Positions 16,172-22,317 are shown, counted from the stretch's first letter. The stretch is DNA of 24,000 nucleotides from Marinobacter sp. NP-4(2019) (GCF_003994855.1 NZ_CP034142.1:2703278-2727277), one strand, 5' to 3'. A program made the numbers and translations. The notes: generated by a model from the sequence alone, not told the origin.

Positions 16172-17263
16172 CTAACGTCCCGGATAAACTTCCTTGATCT
16201 CAGGATCGGGCTCCATCCCCACGGCGTTCCAGCTCGGTAGCTCGTCCACCGCTCGTAGCGCTTGTGGCAGCGGCGAGCGAACGCTTTCCTCGACCCAGCG
16301 TTTACGCTCGATGTCGCCCTGTTTCAGTGCCATCATCATTCGGCGCCGCTCGGCGTCCGGCAGGTGGTCCGGCGGAATATGGCCAAGACACGGGTTGGCG
16401 TGATTGAGGGCGACACCATTAACCAGCCCACGTTGAACCTGCAGGGAGTAGTCCAGGGCGCGCATCGGCGGCGATGCCACCGGCGGAGCTTCCGGTTCGC
16501 AATAACCCGGTGGCTCGGTCATCTGGCCAAACGGCTCGCTGCCGGCGATATTGCGGAACCAGTATTGCCGTTCGGTGGCGCTGCAACTGTTGTCCGGCAC
16601 CATCCTCGCGGCGGTGTAAGCGCCCACGCTGGTCTGGCCCTCCCTAACCTGGGCCGTGGAATGGCAACTCATGCAGGCGGACTGGGGATTGTCCACCGGA
16701 CCGTTCAGGCGGCCATGCAAGCCAACGTGACCGTCGAACGGAGCCGGTACCGCCGGGTTGATCCAGGTCTCATCGAGATCGGGGTCGCCATCGAAGGTGA
16801 CGTCCGGGTCGTTCCCCCAAGCCAGCCCCACCGGAGTCAGGTTATACCAGCGCTGTTGCGGTGTTGCTGCAGGCAGTGATTCGTCGTACACGTAAGTGGC
16901 GAACACCCAACCGGTGTCGGTGGAACGCGGGTCTTTCACCGCGATATCCATCTGGATCAGTCGTACCTCGAAGGTGGCGTTCGACGCCGAGAACGGGTCC
17001 TGAATCTGCCAGGCAGGCGCATTGGCCAACGGATCGGGGCCAACAATGGCGGCGGGATCGTACTCGGCGAACAACACCTTGACCACCAATGTGCCGTCAA
17101 TGAACTGCGACTCGCCGGCATCGGCATTGCTCGGCTCCGGGTCGTGAAACACCTGCCCGATGGTGTAGCCGCCGTGCCAGTTGTACATTCCAATACCAAA
17201 GGCCCCCACATCAGAGGACAGCCACGACTGCTCGGATGCCCGCAGCCCGCGTTCGCGGGTCAA
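16172..17263 (-). CDS. C-terminal part of a split gene: CxxCH (heme c motif)-containing protein
   Basis: Contains ACMSCHS (CxxCH). The only start is a TTG with no SD that overlaps the upstream stop. The reading frame stays open upstream to 17356 (..REPRHGLTRERGL..), which suggests a frameshifted continuation of 17260-17754. Confidence 0.6.
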   Translation of the reverse strand: MTRERGLRASEQSWLSSDVGAFGIGMYNWHGGYTIGQVFHDPEPSNADAGESQFIDGTLVVKVLFAEYDPAAIVGPDPLANAPAWQIQDPFSASNATFEVRLIQMDIAVKDPRSTDTGWVFATYVYDESLPAATPQQRWYNLTPVGLAWGNDPDVTFDGDPDLDETWINPAVPAPFDGHVGLHGRLNGPVDNPQSACMSCHSTAQVREGQTSVGAYTAARMVPDNSCSATERQYWFRNIAGSEPFGQMTEPPGYCEPEAPPVASPPMRALDYSLQVQRGLVNGVALNHANPCLGHIPPDHLPDAERRRMMMALKQGDIERKRWVEESVRSPLPQALRAVDELPSWNAVGMEPDPEIKEVYPGR

Positions 17264-17754
17264 CCCATGGCGGGGCTCGCGGGGAAGAAGCCGGAGGTCA
17301 TCATCGGTACGTGGTACCAGCGTTTCTTGCCCAGGGTGTGGTTTTGCGGCACGAAATCATGGGGCACCAGGTCTGATAGCGCGTAGTCCTTCAAAGCCTC
17401 AAGGTATGAAGCCCGTTCGGCCGGATCGGTGAAATCAAATGCCAGCCAGGGTGCACTGTCAAATGGGGACAGTGGATCCCAACCGGTAATCTCGCCGTCG
17501 TCGTTCACTACCGGCACGCCAAGGGGATACCCCTGAGCCAGGCGAAACGCCTCCACATCACCCGGTGGCGCGGCCCGCGCTATCCAGTCGGGGAACCAGC
17601 CGGAACACTGAACGGTGTAGTCATCCCCGGCGCCGCCACCTTCCCCTGTCGTATCCTGTATGGGCGGATCAAACGTGGGGCGGCAGCCGGAGACCATGAA
17701 CGCACTGACAATCGCCAGGTACAACAGTCTACGGATCAGTTGATGGTTATCCAT
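17260..17754 (-). CDS. N-terminal part of the split gene: lipoprotein
   Basis: It has a lipobox signal (LLYLAIVSAFMVSG/C) and GGAGGG 4-5 nt upstream of the ATG. The start overlaps the 3' end of the upstream oxidase gene by 19 nt. Confidence 0.7.
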   Translation of the reverse strand: MDNHQLIRRLLYLAIVSAFMVSGCRPTFDPPIQDTTGEGGGAGDDYTVQCSGWFPDWIARAAPPGDVEAFRLAQGYPLGVPVVNDDGEITGWDPLSPFDSAPWLAFDFTDPAERASYLEALKDYALSDLVPHDFVPQNHTLGKKRWYHVPMMTSGFFPASPAMG

Positions 17755-20753
17755 TGTCCCTCCGATGGCACGCGCTGATCGTCGATAATGAAAAGCAGAT
17801 AGGCCCCCGGCGGCGCGATATTGCCGTTTGGGGGGAGCTCCACCTGCAGGGCAGCACCGTCAAGGGTGAACGCGCACTCCACAATGCGCTGCGACATATT
17901 GAAACCATGGGTGACCGCCCCCGGGGCCAGCAGGTGGACCGTCACGATATCCGCCGCTTCCGGCGAATCCACGGTTATCGTCGCGCCGTGGGCGGCGCTG
18001 GCCGGTGCGCTGGCAATCGTCGGCCGTGGCCGCTCGAAATACCCCGGCAGATAACGCTCGAACACGTCCGAATTGGGATCGCCGCCAACCAGCACACTGC
18101 CGTCGGCCAACAGGATCGCGGCGGAGTGGTATCCGCGATGGTGGGTCATCACCGGCCCCAGCGTGAAACCGCTGGCTACATCGTCGGCATCGAGCAGCTC
18201 CACCGCGCCTCCCCCGGCTACTGCATTGGCACCGCCAACCACCAGCACGTGCCCATCTGGCAGCAATACGGAGTTCACCTGCTCCGCCCGCTCCAGGTTC
18301 AGATCCGGAAGGCTTTGCCAAGCCGGCATCGCCTCCGAGAGGTCGATCAGCTCGGCGGTTTTTCGAGCGGGGGCAGTATTACCACCGATGACGACCACAC
18401 GGGGTGCGTAATCCGGTGGCCGCAACGGTAACAGCACCGAGGTGCCCTTCTCTCCCCCGGTGCTCCGGTTGCCGGCAATCGTGGCATAGGTTTCCAGGCC
18501 GCCGATGGGCTCGATGGTAAAGCGGTGGGTCGGATCGTGGGGGCCGGCGATGAACAGCCGGCCGTCCGGCAGCAGATAGGTCCATGGGTAATACTGGTGG
18601 TGGTCCATCGCCGCCGGGAAATCAACCGGCGCGCTCCAGGTGCCACTGGCGGAATCCCAGATCTCCAGGGATTTCGAGGCGGAGCCGTAAATTGTGGCAA
18701 TGCGACCGTCGGCCAGGGTCAGGGTAGTGGCGTAAAACCGTGGCTCGGCGGTGGACCCGGTCTGCGACCATTGTTCCGTGGCCGGGTCGAAGACAAAGGC
18801 ATTCACATAGTTGCCGCCGGGGCCGGCAAAGCCGCCGTGTCCCAGCACGCGACCGTCGGGAATAAAGGCGTGGGCCGCCGACCACAGGTCGGACAGGTCG
18901 CTGTCCATGCCCGGCAACGCCGCCGGCTGCGGCGAGGGCTCGGCAACCGTTGGCCCCGGCGGATCATAGAGGCGGGACTGGTCAGCCCGGGTATAGCCCC
19001 AATACAGCACCTTGTTGGTATCGGGCAGCAGGCAGGCGTGCATGAAGGTGACTTCCGGATCGACCTCCAGCTCCTCCCAGGTTCCGGGGCTGAGCTTGTC
19101 GCAGTATCCCATCTCAGCCATCGGTATGGGGTTGCTATCATCGAATAGCTGAATACGCCCTTCCGCCAGCAAGGTCTCCTTCATGGATTCGGTAAGCCAC
19201 ACATCCTTGTAGGATCGCACAACCGCGATCATGCCATTCATCATGTGGTGGTGGACGTGGCAATGCACCAGGAAGTCCCCCATCAACCGCACTTTCTCGG
19301 CGTCGGGTGGGCGGTCGTCGGCGTCCTGGATTGCCGCAACCTCCTCCGGCAGGATCAGCGCCGGTGGCGCCACCGTGTCGACAGTGAACGACTCCGCCGG
19401 CCCAACGGAGCGCACATCGTGATTCTCACCGGCCAGTTCCCAGCGGATGTTGTGGGGATGGAAATTGTGCCATTCGTGGCCAAAATCGAGGTTGAACACG
19501 TACCAGCGAATCTTCTGCCCGGCACGCGCAATGATGGTGGGCGTATTGCCCACAAACCCACGGCCATTGATGCAGTGGGTGACCAGCGCCGCCCCGTCCC
19601 TCGATGTCACGGTGTGGTGCTGCATGCTCAGGTTGTTCCAGGTAACCGTGCCGCCAGGCGCGACATCAATGGAGTCCGGATAGAAGCCCATTGCCGGCGC
19701 ATCGAGGATGTTGACCGTGGCAGTGGCCGGCGCACCGGAGACGACATTCACAGTACCGGTCATTGCCGGGTGGTAGGCACAGAAATACTCGTAGCTGCCG
19801 GCATCGTCGAAGGTGTGGTCAAAGGTGCCGGCGCCGTTTTCCTCCATATCGCCGCTGTCGAATGCGGGTTTGGCCTGGTCGCTGACCATCTGGTGCAGGA
19901 AAAACGGCACGTGCAGCGTATTCCAGTCTGGTCGTGGCCAGAACCGGAGGCGCAGGTCGCGCATCAGCCATTCCCGCAAGTCCTCGTACTGGTTCTGCAG
20001 CAGCAGTTCCTGCCTCCGTGTCAAACGGGCCCGCAGGGGTGTGCGGGGGTCCCTCCTGGCCGGTTTCGCCTGCTTCTTGGCGGGCGCACACAACGGCAAC
20101 TTGAGTCCCTTGTACACCATGTCGGGGAAACGTTCCGGCAGCGGGAGCGGAATGGGCCAGCGAAACGGGCGCTTGCGAATGATGATCCCGCCAAACAACC
20201 CCAGCTTGGAGCTGCCATGGGAGGCGTGTGAGGAATGATCGTGAAACGGCCAGGCACCGATCATGTTTTCCCGCACCTGATAGATATACGTCCAGGACTT
20301 TCCCGGGCAGATCTCATCGGATCGGCGACCATCCGCCGCCTGGGTCCCCATCGGCCAGGCGCCATCGGAATCGATGCCATATTCGATACCATGGATATGA
20401 AACGAATGGGGGCGATTGTCGGCATTATGCACGTGGATGCGAACGTTATCGCCAACGTAGGCATAGAGCACGCAACCGGGCACCCGATGATTCCACACCG
20501 GTTCATTAATGTCCGCATGGACCAGTTTGCTGGTGCGAGGAATCAGGTAATCGGCATCCTGATACTCACGGAAGGTCACCGCGCGCAGTGCGCGGGCATC
20601 ACGCTCGGCATCCGGGATCACCCCCATGGGGTGCCCCATGTAGTGCATGCCGTCGCGTTTGTACTGAATGGGGGGAATGGCAAAGGGGTCCGGCTCAACC
20701 GGGCTGTAATCCTCCATTGCCTCGATACGCAGGTAGAAATCCCTGTCCGCCAT
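17736..20753 (-). CDS. fusion protein: multicopper oxidase plus cupredoxin (N-terminal about 520 aa) joined to a galactose/glyoxal-oxidase-like kelch propeller with DUF1929-type E-set tail (C-terminal about 450 aa)
   Basis: All four MCO copper motifs are present: HSFHIHG, WPFHDHS, HNFHPHN and HCHVHHHMMNGM. A type-1 site is YFCAYHPAM. Radical-copper-oxidase-like motifs are HACLLPD, PRFYATTLTLADGR, GYHSAAILLADGSVLVGG and AVTHGFNMSQR. The RBS GGAG lies 7 nt upstream of ATG 20753. Confidence 0.85.
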   Translation of the reverse strand: MADRDFYLRIEAMEDYSPVEPDPFAIPPIQYKRDGMHYMGHPMGVIPDAERDARALRAVTFREYQDADYLIPRTSKLVHADINEPVWNHRVPGCVLYAYVGDNVRIHVHNADNRPHSFHIHGIEYGIDSDGAWPMGTQAADGRRSDEICPGKSWTYIYQVRENMIGAWPFHDHSSHASHGSSKLGLFGGIIIRKRPFRWPIPLPLPERFPDMVYKGLKLPLCAPAKKQAKPARRDPRTPLRARLTRRQELLLQNQYEDLREWLMRDLRLRFWPRPDWNTLHVPFFLHQMVSDQAKPAFDSGDMEENGAGTFDHTFDDAGSYEYFCAYHPAMTGTVNVVSGAPATATVNILDAPAMGFYPDSIDVAPGGTVTWNNLSMQHHTVTSRDGAALVTHCINGRGFVGNTPTIIARAGQKIRWYVFNLDFGHEWHNFHPHNIRWELAGENHDVRSVGPAESFTVDTVAPPALILPEEVAAIQDADDRPPDAEKVRLMGDFLVHCHVHHHMMNGMIAVVRSYKDVWLTESMKETLLAEGRIQLFDDSNPIPMAEMGYCDKLSPGTWEELEVDPEVTFMHACLLPDTNKVLYWGYTRADQSRLYDPPGPTVAEPSPQPAALPGMDSDLSDLWSAAHAFIPDGRVLGHGGFAGPGGNYVNAFVFDPATEQWSQTGSTAEPRFYATTLTLADGRIATIYGSASKSLEIWDSASGTWSAPVDFPAAMDHHQYYPWTYLLPDGRLFIAGPHDPTHRFTIEPIGGLETYATIAGNRSTGGEKGTSVLLPLRPPDYAPRVVVIGGNTAPARKTAELIDLSEAMPAWQSLPDLNLERAEQVNSVLLPDGHVLVVGGANAVAGGGAVELLDADDVASGFTLGPVMTHHRGYHSAAILLADGSVLVGGDPNSDVFERYLPGYFERPRPTIASAPASAAHGATITVDSPEAADIVTVHLLAPGAVTHGFNMSQRIVECAFTLDGAALQVELPPNGNIAPPGAYLLFIIDDQRVPSEGQWITIN

Positions 20754-20803
20754 AATATGCCTCCATGCAGATGATTCGCGTCCTGGAACGTTGCCCGACA
20801 GCG

Positions 20804-20829
20804 ACGCATAGATGCGTATTTAATGCGTA
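20804..20829 (-). promoter_or_regulatory. repeat cluster upstream of the oxidase gene (candidate response-regulator box)
   Basis: The minus strand reads TACGCAT-TAAA-TACGCAT-CT-ATGCGT. Two 7-mers are in direct repeat at 11-bp periodicity, with a third inverted copy. The cluster lies about 50-75 nt upstream of the ATG. Confidence 0.4.
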
Positions 20830-20895
20830 CTTACAACAGAGTAGCCCTCCTCGAACATTCAACAAGATCGAAATGTTCTTTAAAATTCCTGCATA

Positions 20896-20952
20896 GAAGA
20901 ACGGCTTACATGCTCCTGTTACCCTTGAAAGGGCCAACATGACCCGTTTCCT
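20896..20952 (-). repeat. attC-like element E (after the DinB-family gene)
   Basis: The plus strand reads GAAGAACGGCTTACATGCTCC...CATGACCCGTTTCCT. The AACGG/CCGTT and CATG arms pair, and there is a central CCCTT-TC-AAGGG hairpin. The element begins 3 nt after the stop codon. Confidence 0.4.
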
Positions 20953-20955
20953 CAC

Positions 20956-21507
20956 CTACTTGCCCACTTGAGCCAGGGTCTCCTGAATCCGATCCAAGAG
21001 GTCGGTAACCCCGATATCCACACCCATCTGTGACAGTAAAGTAGAAACTTGCCCCCGATGGTGAGTCTGATGGTTAAAGAAATGCAGAACCAGGCTCGAA
21101 TATCGTTTATTGGCAGGAATCCCTTCGATGTTGTGGTAGCCGAGAACGAAATCCAGATCGCCTTCGGACAGCTCGGCTATCCAGTTGATAATCTGACGAT
21201 CCAACCAGATCCGCTGCTCAGACAAGCTACCAAGATCGTTAAAGAGTATCTGATCCAGCCTGGTCGGATTTTGAAGATCAGCCACTTCCCGCAACGAGTT
21301 CAGGCAGGACGGATGGGTGGCAAATCGTTTGAGCCAGATAATGTCACCAACGAGGATGTGATTCAGGGTGCCCAGGATGGAGCCGAAAAAGGCCCCCCGA
21401 TCTTTGGCCAAATCTGTTGCAGAGAGATGTCCCGCAGCCTCATAGACCTTCGAGTTCATCCACTGATTGTAGGCGGCCAGCAATTCAAAGTGATTTTTCA
21501 AGCTCAT
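20956..21507 (-). CDS. DinB-family (DinB_2/YfiT-like) protein
   Basis: 183 aa starting MSLKNHFELLAAYNQWMN..., with His-rich motifs LNHILVGDIIW and HFFNHQTHHRGQ. The start is set at ATG 21507. The track's 275-aa ORF runs back through the higA remnant. Confidence 0.85.
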   Translation of the reverse strand: MSLKNHFELLAAYNQWMNSKVYEAAGHLSATDLAKDRGAFFGSILGTLNHILVGDIIWLKRFATHPSCLNSLREVADLQNPTRLDQILFNDLGSLSEQRIWLDRQIINWIAELSEGDLDFVLGYHNIEGIPANKRYSSLVLHFFNHQTHHRGQVSTLLSQMGVDIGVTDLLDRIQETLAQVGK

Positions 21508-21517
21508 CAGAGTTCCT

Positions 21518-21815
21518 TCATTTCCATATCGGAGGCTCTCGTTGGTCCAGAGGGTGAATGTCATCCAGGTTGGCCGTGTTGCGGGCCACCCAAAGATCGT
21601 ACATATCCTGCATCGCGAGCCAACTTTCAGGAGTACGCCCAAGAACCTTCGATAACCGCAGAGACATTTCCAGACTGATACCGCTATCCCCTTTGAGCAG
21701 CCGAGACAAGGTGGAGGGTGCCCCCCAGACTCGAAGAAAGCTGACGAGAACTGATGCCTAAAGGCTCGAGGTACACCTACCAAATGAACTCACCAGGATG
21801 CGGCGGATTATGCAT
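21518..21815 (-). pseudogene. higA: HigA-family antitoxin (XRE HTH), inactivated by a nonsense codon and a frameshift
   Basis: The ATG at 21815 overlaps the yoeB stop (TAATG). The product reads MHNPPHPGEFIW, then TAG (21779-21777), then VYLEPLGISSRQLSSSLG. A +1 frame change at the G6 run (plus-strand C6 at 21721-21726) leads to APSTLSRLLKGDSGISLEMSLRLSKVLGRTPESWLAMQ... Confidence 0.75.
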
Positions 21816-22078
21816 TATTCGTAGTGGCTCCAGAGCCTGAGAACTTTCACCACCTGCTCGTCTTCGAGCACCTGGTAAACCAGACGATGCTGAATATTGA
21901 TTCGGCGTGAATAGGCCCCCGCAAGGTCACCAATGAGCTTCTCAAACGGAGGCGGTTTGCGGTACGGATCTTCAGCTATCAGCGCTAACAGTTCCTGGGC
22001 TTTTGGTTTAAGGCCGCTGGAGGCCAACTTCTTTGCATCTTTCTGGGCTTGCTTGGTGTAAACCAACTTCCATGTCAC
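21815..22078 (-). CDS. yoeB: Txe/YoeB family type II toxin
   Basis: 87 aa. The sequence ...YSRRINIQHRLVYQVLEDEQVVKVLRLWSHYE is typical of the YoeB C-terminus. It overlaps yefM by ATGA. Confidence 0.9.
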   Translation of the reverse strand: MTWKLVYTKQAQKDAKKLASSGLKPKAQELLALIAEDPYRKPPPFEKLIGDLAGAYSRRINIQHRLVYQVLEDEQVVKVLRLWSHYE

Positions 22079-22317
22079 CAGTCCAGCTCCTCATCGCATT
22101 CATCCACTGGGGTATCCATCCCCTCGCGAATAGACTCCCGCATGCCTGGCACGGAGAGCAGGTAAAGTGTTTCCTGAATAGCCGACCAGTCTTCTTCGGA
22201 TACCAAGACGGCCTTGTTCCGCTTACCCATAATGACGATTGGTTGGTGTGACTCGGCTGTTTCATCAATCAACCGATAAAGGTTGCTGCGCGCCTCAGTT
22301 GCTGTAATTCCTGTCAT
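22075..22317 (-). CDS. yefM: Phd/YefM family type II antitoxin
   Basis: 80 aa. The sequence ITATEARSNLYRLIDETAESHQPIVIMGKRNKAVLVSEEDWSAIQETLYLLS is canonical YefM. The RBS GAGGT lies 5 nt upstream. Confidence 0.9.
   Translation of the reverse strand: MTGITATEARSNLYRLIDETAESHQPIVIMGKRNKAVLVSEEDWSAIQETLYLLSVPGMRESIREGMDTPVDECDEELDW

Follow-up and report, generated by a model that had tools for sequence, protein, structure and literature searches.

A Marinobacter protein joining a two-domain multicopper oxidase, a circularly permuted cupredoxin and a galactose oxidase-type propeller without the cofactor cysteine

Gene, domain architecture and family

We analysed a stretch of 24,000 nucleotides from Marinobacter sp. 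NP-4(2019) (GCF_003994855.1, NZ_CP034142.1:2703278-2727277), referred to as a whole as the window, which carries a gene for a single polypeptide combining a multicopper oxidase (MCO), an additional type-1 (T1) cupredoxin and a beta-propeller of the galactose oxidase (GAO) and GlxA type (hereafter the fusion protein). A first reading, made by a model from this DNA alone (the sequence-only reading), had placed a polypeptide of 1005 amino acids (aa) at positions 17736-20753 and had given no strand for it. The open reading frame (ORF) was confirmed at this position on the minus strand, where it runs from an ATG start through 1005 codons to a stop and is maximal in extent. The gene, its domains and the neighbouring features are collected in Table 1. 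A scan for promoters and terminators revealed nothing beyond background.

Table 1. Positions of the fusion gene, its domains and the adjacent features in the window.
Feature	Positions	Strand	Basis
Fusion ORF (MCO, permuted cupredoxin, GAO-like propeller)	17736..20753	-	ORF call, Pfam, homologs, AlphaFold2 model
Shine-Dalgarno sequence GGAGG, 6 nt 5' of the ATG at 20753	20760..20764	-	Direct sequence reading
Residues 1-195: MCO domain 1, ceruloplasmin/factor VIII A-domain type; H119, H121 (HSFHIHG), H171, H173 (WPFHDHS)	20169..20753	-	Cu-oxidase_3; PDB matches to ceruloplasmin, SLAC, 3gdc; invariance
Residues 196-278: hypervariable insert, Arg/Lys/Pro-rich; conserved helix 246-269	19920..20168	-	Alignment; pLDDT, DSSP
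Residues 279-386: halocyanin/amicyanin-like T1 cupredoxin, circularly permuted; C325, H328, M331 precede H380	19596..19919	-	Profiles, alignments
Residues 387-520: MCO domain 2; T1 ligands H429, C498, H503, M508; trinuclear-cluster ligands H432, H434, H497, H499	19194..19595	-	Cu-oxidase_2; invariance
Residues 521-555: linker; helix 522-530, invariant C551	19089..19193	-	Alignment; model
Residues 556-905: GAO/GlxA-type beta-propeller; Cu ligands Y674, Y875, H876; W624-S625...H628; F673	18039..19088	-	Pfam, PDB sequence and fold matches, invariance
Residues 906-1005: GO-like E-set (DUF1929), providing the fourth Cu ligand H949 (AVTHGF)	17739..18038	-	Pfam, PDB alignment, invariance
P460-like c-haem (CMSCH) lipoprotein-type gene, 527 aa, overlapping the end of the fusion ORF by 19 nt	16172..17754	-	ORF calls, comparison with a Marinobacter metagenome-assembled genome
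DinB-family gene	20956-21783		
YoeB/ParE-family toxin (87 aa) and Phd/YefM antitoxin (80 aa), overlapping genes, just upstream of the DinB-family gene	21815-22317	-	

Five Pfam domains were detected in the fusion protein, every one above its gathering score: Cu-oxidase_3 at residues 87-195 (E 7e-12), Copper-bind at 306-337 (E 2e-7), Cu-oxidase_2 at 387-515 (E 2e-10), Glyoxal_oxid_N at 621-791 (E 5e-15) and GO-like_E_set at 910-1004 (E 3.5e-24). Together with the fold matches given below, they bear out the initial view that one chain holds an MCO, an extra T1 cupredoxin site and a propeller with E-set domain of the GAO/GlxA type, and all motifs quoted for these modules are present. Among the NCBIfam models, sub-threshold similarity was seen to GlxA, halocyanin, plastocyanin, amicyanin, CopA and laccase. 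The AlphaFold2 model, for which 98 homologs served as input, was confident and had a mean predicted local distance difference test (pLDDT) score of 91.1 and a predicted template modelling score (pTM) of 0.65. The chain contains ligand sets for a trinuclear cluster, two T1 coppers and one Tyr2His2 copper, and is predicted to bind six copper ions.

A database search recovered over 1000 clusters of homologs that are 48-66% identical to the fusion protein and share its five domains; with so many clusters sharing it, the single-chain arrangement is not an assembly artefact. The homologs bear only unspecific names, for example 'galactose oxidase-like domain-containing protein', 'plastocyanin' or 'FtsP/CotA-like MCO'. 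Among the one-genome-per-species contigs of GTDB, 182 stretches from at least 12 phyla encode a relative, the closest of which (96% identity) belongs to a Marinobacter metagenome-assembled genome (MAG). The hosts in Pseudomonadota include Variovorax, Piscinibacter and four Nitrosomonas species, and others were found in Acidobacteriota, Actinomycetota, Bacteroidota, Planctomycetota, Myxococcota, Gemmatimonadota, Nitrospirota, Armatimonadota and Verrucomicrobiota as well as among Nitrosopumilus and Nitrososphaera MAGs. The proteins are about 1000-1130 aa long, approximately half of them measuring about 1120 aa owing to an additional N-terminal transthyretin-like beta-sandwich. The sequence-only reading had allowed that the architecture might prove both common and already characterised; it is common (182 GTDB species), whereas our full-text literature searches found no paper on it, in agreement with the earlier remark that no characterised example was known. 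The family is large, phylogenetically broad, unnamed and, as far as the literature found goes, uncharacterised, and its chemistry is probably new.

Conservation is given below as counts among 98 aligned homologs of about 50% identity or, where stated, among 84 genomic homologs. The Tat (twin-arginine translocation) or Sec (general secretory) export signal, which is typical of bacterial MCOs and not strictly defining for them, was found neither in the maximal ORF nor in the homologs: the N-terminus, MADRDFYLRIE, coincides in the alignment with the N-termini of the short homologs, and a hydrophobic N-terminus occurs in 0/98. Since none of the homologs has one, the absence of a signal peptide, already pointed out in the sequence-only reading, is a property of the whole family and not the result of a mis-called start.

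The Arg/Lys/Pro-rich insertion originally put at about residues 195-285 also proved real. It corresponds to the insert at 196-278, which is the hypervariable part of the family in the alignment; it contains the only segment of the model with pLDDT below 50 (residues 226-233) and a long helix at 246-269. At the same position, the homologs P0045, P0077, P0080 and P0102 have long His/Gly/Asp- or His/Pro-rich stretches that resemble metal-binding segments.

Multicopper oxidase core and the inserted cupredoxin

The four MCO motifs of the N-terminal half (H119-x-H121, H171-x-H173, H429-x-x-H432-x-H434 and H497-C498-H499-x3-H503-x4-M508) are kept in 97-98/98 homologs, and all eight trinuclear-cluster His are present in the fusion protein. 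Among the 84 genomic homologs, the MCO, T1 and propeller copper ligands were found in 75-84 sequences, the shortfalls being mostly alignment gaps in incomplete sequences; the axial Met of the T1 site is Leu in 35/84. Like type-B two-domain MCOs, the protein has the T1 site of its MCO in the second, C-terminal domain; domain 1 was closest to ceruloplasmin domain 1 in the PDB sequence and profile searches. Foldseek matched the N-terminal half to ceruloplasmin, factor V/VIII, MnxG and small laccases (E 1e-16 to 1e-13). When superposed on whole two-domain small laccases, it gave target-normalised template modelling scores of 0.61-0.67, compared with 0.23 for a three-domain MCO. Thus, the fusion protein resembles SLAC, 3gdc and the A-domain pair of ceruloplasmin, factor V and factor VIII in its four canonical copper motifs and in the C-terminal location of the T1 site. 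However, it differs from two-domain MCOs in about 190 additional residues between the domains (the variable insert and a complete extra T1 cupredoxin), in its C-terminal propeller and in having no Tat or Sec signal. Two-domain MCOs are trimers with inter-subunit clusters (PMC13151041); because of this and of the superposition on small laccases, the protein probably acts as a homotrimer whose trinuclear clusters lie between subunits.

For the extra cupredoxin, the sequence-only reading had proposed a Cys-X2-His-X2-Met site with the His of an upstream FDH motif as a further ligand. The first part holds, as C325, H328 and M331 are invariant. The His of FDH (H313), however, is present in only 32/98 homologs, and the ligand is instead H380, which like the other three is found in 98/98. 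Two near-invariant residues, H281 and H287, were also considered as the His ligand and were replaced by H380 once the permutation described below had emerged.

The module does not follow the canonical order of strands and ligands, in which the His precedes the Cys-His-Met group, and the sequence after its Cys-His-Met loop (...VNILDAPAMGFYPDSIDVAPGGTVTWNNLSMQHHTVTS...) resembles the N-terminal half of a cupredoxin. In its natural order the module matched the Pfam Copper-bind profile in two separate pieces with 40 bits, whereas the re-ordered sequence (338-390 followed by 290-339) matched it in one stretch covering profile positions 8-98 of 99 with 49 bits. The plastocyanin, halocyanin and amicyanin models of NCBIfam behaved in the same way upon re-ordering. 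Moreover, the re-ordered module aligned end-to-end with 5fc9 (blue (type 1) copper domain protein), amicyanins and plastocyanins, and in this alignment H380 falls on the canonical N-terminal His ligand (the 'pHnv' of amicyanin).

In an exhaustive search with the module in natural order, the best matches were proteins with 5-15 matched stretches, and the two that we inspected are tandem halocyanin-like arrays, to whose repeats the module is 40-48% identical. The breakpoint of the module sits exactly within the repeat unit of these arrays ('HTVT.RDG|FDSG'), the pattern of duplication followed by truncation that is the classic route to circular permutation. Scored with a hidden Markov model (HMM) built from 24 canonical repeats, 98/98 family modules did better re-ordered than in natural order: the median was 66 bits as against 35, the span 82 of the 97 HMM positions as against 39, and the smallest gain 16 bits. 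All of this shows that the module, lodged between the two MCO domains, is a halocyanin-type cupredoxin in circularly permuted form, and because it is permuted, the true N-terminal His ligand lies downstream of the Cys. Our literature search found no paper describing a natural circularly permuted cupredoxin, which makes this feature a structural curiosity of independent interest.

Compared with known cupredoxins, the module has the same His-Cys-His-Met set as the halocyanin, amicyanin and plastocyanin types and 5fc9 (re-ordered E 1e-9 for 5fc9 and 1e-7 for amicyanin), but unlike free or arrayed cupredoxins it has its C-terminal half first and is lodged within an MCO. Copper nitrite reductases with a tethered cupredoxin (9cck and 6hbe, both among the module's own PDB matches) are similar in that a blue-copper module is fused to a multi-copper core of cupredoxin domains. 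In contrast to the fusion protein, they reduce nitrite and not O2, their cupredoxin is terminal and in normal order, and they have no propeller. Invariant in the family, the extra T1 module can only be an electron carrier.

Many more His, Cys and Met residues that are invariant or nearly so are found away from the assigned copper sites (positions 41, 116, 149, 281, 287, 379, 393-394, 501-502, 551, 571-572 and 628, among them C149, C551, H281, H287, M571-H572 and H628). These residues could represent further metal sites or paths for electrons or protons.

The propeller copper site and a possible relay to the multicopper oxidase

The propeller and E-set domains matched GAO, GlxA and other enzymes of family AA5 with Foldseek E values of 1e-36 to 1e-30 and a profile E value of 1e-44. 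The fold, a seven-bladed propeller followed by a C-terminal E-set domain, is the one found in GlxA of Streptomyces lividans (4unm) and in the AA5 structures 1gof, 9g43, 5c92 and 9n3u, and the four copper ligands are also the same: Y674 (PRFYAT), Y875 and H876 (GYHSAA) and H949 (AVTHGF) align with Y289, Y501, H502 and H589 of GlxA and are conserved in 98/98 homologs, as the sequence-only reading had anticipated when it took these motifs for hallmarks of galactose/glyoxal oxidases. That reading had, in addition, paired the Tyr of PRFYAT with the Cys of HACLLPD (C574) as the Cys-Tyr cofactor, and here the alignments disagree with it. In the profile of 98 sequences, 'psdlFCtgHtql' of GlxA stands over 'tsdlWSaeHall' and 'ntIHAALL' of GlxA over 'tfMHACLL'; in a single-sequence alignment, 'dmfCpgtsllpdgril' of a bacterial galactose oxidase stands over 'dlwSaahafipdgrvl'. 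C574 lies one blade earlier, corresponds to Ala in GlxA and is Cys in merely 13/98 homologs. The position of the cofactor Cys (C228 in GAO, C121 in GlxA) is occupied by Ser625 (DLWSAAH), which is Ser in 98/98 aligned and in 81/84 genomic homologs. Thus, of the galactose oxidase-like assignment, the domains and the four copper ligands stood and the cofactor Cys did not.

The change is not confined to this residue. The position of GlxA Trp288 is Phe673 in the fusion protein (98/98) and a Trp is found at 624 instead; W624, S625, H628 and F673 are all invariant in the family. Among the 81 genomic homologs with Ser625, 78 have W624 and 80 have F673, so that the replacement of Cys by Ser co-varies with F624W and W673F. 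Because the two aromatic positions are swapped in step with the loss of the Cys, the propeller site seems to have been remodelled under selection and not to have decayed. The two most distant fused homologs, from Anaeromyxobacter (L083) and Nitrosomonas communis (L084), have the full architecture including the permuted cupredoxin and are alone in retaining the canonical F624-C625...W673-Y674; the fusion is thus older than the loss of the Cys. A third second-shell variant, H624-S625...Y673-Y674, was seen in a fused homolog from Chthonomonadales (L063).

The cross-linked Cys-Tyr radical is the defining cofactor of the copper-radical oxidases (CROs), whose first-shell residues are otherwise conserved across AA5; in GlxA, W288 is crucial if the cofactor is to form, and removal of the Cys relocates the radical onto Trp (PMC13094651). 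With an invariant Ser at the Cys position, the main clade is predicted to be incapable of forming the Tyr-Cys cross-link. In keeping with this, the fusion protein scored 153 bits with the GlxA equivalog of NCBIfam, which has a cut-off of 800. It further differs from GlxA and other AA5 enzymes in that it lacks a signal peptide or membrane anchor and is joined to an MCO and a cupredoxin. The propeller is therefore a relative of the CROs and not a canonical member.

The original proposal that the chain holds two complete and mechanistically distinct oxidases, a radical-copper oxidase releasing H2O2 and an MCO producing water, has to be judged against this site. Both domain sets are indeed present with their metal ligands, and L083 and L084 retain the canonical Cys and Trp. 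However, Ser replaces the Cys and Phe the Trp288 equivalent both here and in 81/84 genomic homologs, the cross-link that is missing defines the CRO cofactor (PMC13094651), the alternative candidate C574 aligns with an Ala of GlxA and is found in only 13/98 homologs, and two independent enzymes would have no use for an invariant additional cupredoxin that transfers electrons. We consider it very improbable that two independent oxidases operate in each chain.

It could also be proposed that catalysis is left to the MCO alone, in the role of a laccase, ferroxidase, cuprous oxidase or Mn oxidase, and that the propeller and E-set serve as a scaffold that binds a substrate or a partner; the propeller copper would then be structural, regulatory or vestigial, and the extra cupredoxin would merely broaden the intake of electrons. 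The complete and invariant MCO ligand set agrees with such a role, as do the propeller's loss of both the Cys and the stacking Trp, which are hallmarks of radical chemistry, and the frequent use of Kelch and propeller domains as binding modules. Gene context points in the same direction: when the ORFs within 6 kb of the gene were clustered all-against-all for 85 loci, tyrosinase-domain proteins were found in 10/85, usually directly adjoining, which suggests phenolic chemistry that an MCO could perform alone. On the other hand, the four propeller copper ligands and W624, S625, H628 and F673 are invariant at about 50% identity, which is hard to square with a passive scaffold, and the distant fused and split relatives with a fully canonical CRO site imply that the ancestral partner was an active CRO. 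We therefore regard the MCO as sole catalyst as rather unlikely.

We tentatively favour, as a possibility that falls just short of probable, a third reading, in which the fusion protein is a six-copper relay oxidase whose mechanism we infer as follows. The mononuclear Cu-tyrosinate site of the propeller would oxidise a substrate, which could be an alcohol, aldehyde, phenol or tyrosyl-type compound, and the electrons would leave the propeller singly through the fused blue-copper module to the T1 site of the MCO and from there to the trinuclear cluster, where O2 would be reduced to water. In classical CROs, the copper site reacts directly with O2 and releases H2O2. In the relay, no H2O2 would be released and no external activator would be needed, the MCO being both the terminal oxidase and a built-in re-oxidant (or activator) of the propeller site. 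This function of the MCO might account for the main clade's ability to dispense with the thioether cofactor.

Several lines of evidence are consistent with the relay. The pairing of an MCO and cupredoxin with a CRO-type propeller recurs as a split pair, as a canonical fusion (L083 and L084) and as the Cys-less fusion. The split pair is encoded in a metagenomic locus (L001, 2908-7947), where it is followed by a tyrosinase gene and lies just upstream of a fused gene; it consists of a 680-aa MCO with a C-terminal cupredoxin in normal order and a 629-aa propeller protein with the canonical Cys and Trp-Tyr, the tyrosinase is a His-rich protein of 298 aa, and none of the three proteins has a signal peptide. 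The pairing recurs independently, and because the split propeller of L001 and the propellers of L083 and L084 keep the Cys and Trp, the wiring is older than the loss of the Cys. A built-in blue-copper relay is also plausible because the nitrite reductases with a tethered cupredoxin (9cck and 6hbe) provide a precedent. As for the need of a re-oxidant, CROs are known to depend for their activation on an external one-electron oxidant or a partner enzyme (PMC12951238, PMC9770985). The fungal CRO-peroxidase tandem (PMC9770985) and the peroxidase-activated CROs (PMC12951238) follow the same principle, in that a second redox enzyme oxidises the CRO-type site. However, these pairs are separate secreted proteins with a haem peroxidase as the partner, whereas here the proposed partner, an MCO, is part of the CRO-type chain itself, which lacks the cofactor Cys.

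At the same time, a number of points weigh against the relay. It is deduced from sequence and from a predicted model of the monomer, whose pTM of just 0.65 makes the geometry between domains uncertain, and the electron path from the propeller to the T1 site is a putative one; the trimer, likewise, is proposed from fold similarity alone. A tyrosyl radical may not be sustained at all in a propeller site that has neither the stacking Trp nor the thioether, and mutation of the Cys in GlxA shifts the radical elsewhere (PMC13094651). No conserved neighbour indicating a substrate was found among the 85 loci, and the absence of a signal peptide leaves the localisation of the protein and its copper loading unexplained.

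We see the fusion protein as a variant assembled from known copper modules, the new elements being the remodelled Cys-less CRO-type site and the circularly permuted cupredoxin. The further-reaching idea that the family constitutes a new class of copper oxidases, in which an un-cross-linked Cu-tyrosinate (or tyrosyl) site descended from galactose oxidase is oxidised by an MCO through a permuted blue-copper relay, so that substrate oxidation is tied to the four-electron reduction of O2 to water, with no H2O2 and possibly in the cytoplasm, seems to us fairly doubtful. To our knowledge, copper enzymes are almost unknown in the bacterial cytoplasm, and a family without signal peptides raises the question of where and how the six copper ions are loaded. 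If the relay is true, two problems of CROs, the need for an external activator and the release of H2O2, would be solved within one polypeptide and in the absence of the thioether cofactor, which is regarded as the defining feature of the class. This would raise a bioinorganic question, namely by what means a Tyr2His2 copper site can function when it has no Cys-Tyr cross-link, and would interest biocatalysis, since the protein might be an alcohol or aldehyde oxidase that activates itself and releases no peroxide. Members of the family occur in cultured bacteria (Variovorax, Piscinibacter and several species of Nitrosomonas), which makes it experimentally accessible.

Genomic neighbourhood

No general conserved operon partner of the fusion gene was found among the 85 loci. 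Copper P-type ATPases occur in 9/85 loci, and MerR-type regulators, CopA-like Tat-exported MCOs and resistance-nodulation-division (RND) pumps in 4/85 each. Such neighbours would fit a role in copper homeostasis, with the protein acting as a cuprous oxidase or a Cu(I) sink and its insert being akin to the Met/His-rich copper-binding segment of the CueO type, and several homologs do have His-rich inserts at the position of residues 196-278. However, these genes are found at a minority of loci and may reflect no more than a demand for copper supply, the insert of the fusion protein is rich in Arg, Lys and Pro and not in His or Met, the cuprous oxidases known so far reach the periplasm through Tat whereas signal peptides are absent from the whole family, and the conserved Tyr2His2 site of the propeller would be left unexplained. 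A function in copper homeostasis is, in our view, improbable.

In the window, the fusion gene overlaps a gene for a P460-like c-haem protein, which is split here into ORFs of 164 and 363 aa by the loss of 1 nt from a C-run near position 17284 (CTTCTT-CCCCGC); in a 96%-identical Marinobacter MAG it forms one ORF of 527 aa. The frameshift represents either a pseudogene or a sequencing error. The signal peptide of the P460-like protein (MDNHQLIRRLLYLAIVSAFMVSGC) holds an RR pair, which might indicate Tat export. Its family gave 841 matches, all annotated as 'hypothetical' and normally standing alone, and it adjoins the fusion gene in 3/85 loci; on these grounds we rejected it as a partner of the whole family and regard the association as confined to this lineage. 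A link to ammonia oxidation, to which the matches in Nitrosomonas, Nitrospira and Nitrosopumilus and the P460-like neighbour might have pointed, was likewise rejected, as most hosts are not nitrifiers and gene context gives it no support.

Between two Marinobacter genomes (window positions 16174-20908 and L005, 3050-7788) the similarity of 94% does not go beyond the genes for the fusion protein and the P460-like protein plus some 150 bp upstream, and the flanks differ. Because the similarity is limited to both genes and these 150 bp, the two behave as a mobile two-gene cassette in Marinobacter. In the window the flanks contain the DinB-family gene, the YoeB/ParE-Phd/YefM toxin-antitoxin pair and a RibD_C gene.

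Directly downstream of the fused gene in Nitrosomonas sp. Nm166 (L002/L049; about 11500-14300 in L002) are genes for a subtilase and a PatG_D/PatG_C protein and small Cys-rich ORFs sharing a leader-like motif, FTAE.SFY..RRY, an arrangement that resembles a cluster for ribosomally synthesised and post-translationally modified peptides (RiPPs). A role in RiPP tailoring was rejected as a general function, since this context occurs in Nitrosomonas sp. Nm166 alone (three redundant loci). Another rearrangement involves the P460-like gene: P0122, a 575-aa protein encoded on a Logan contig of 5347 bp, is a deletion chimera in which a 94%-identical MCO half extends to about residue 452 and is followed directly by the middle of the P460-like protein, so that the remainder of MCO domain 2 and the entire propeller are missing.

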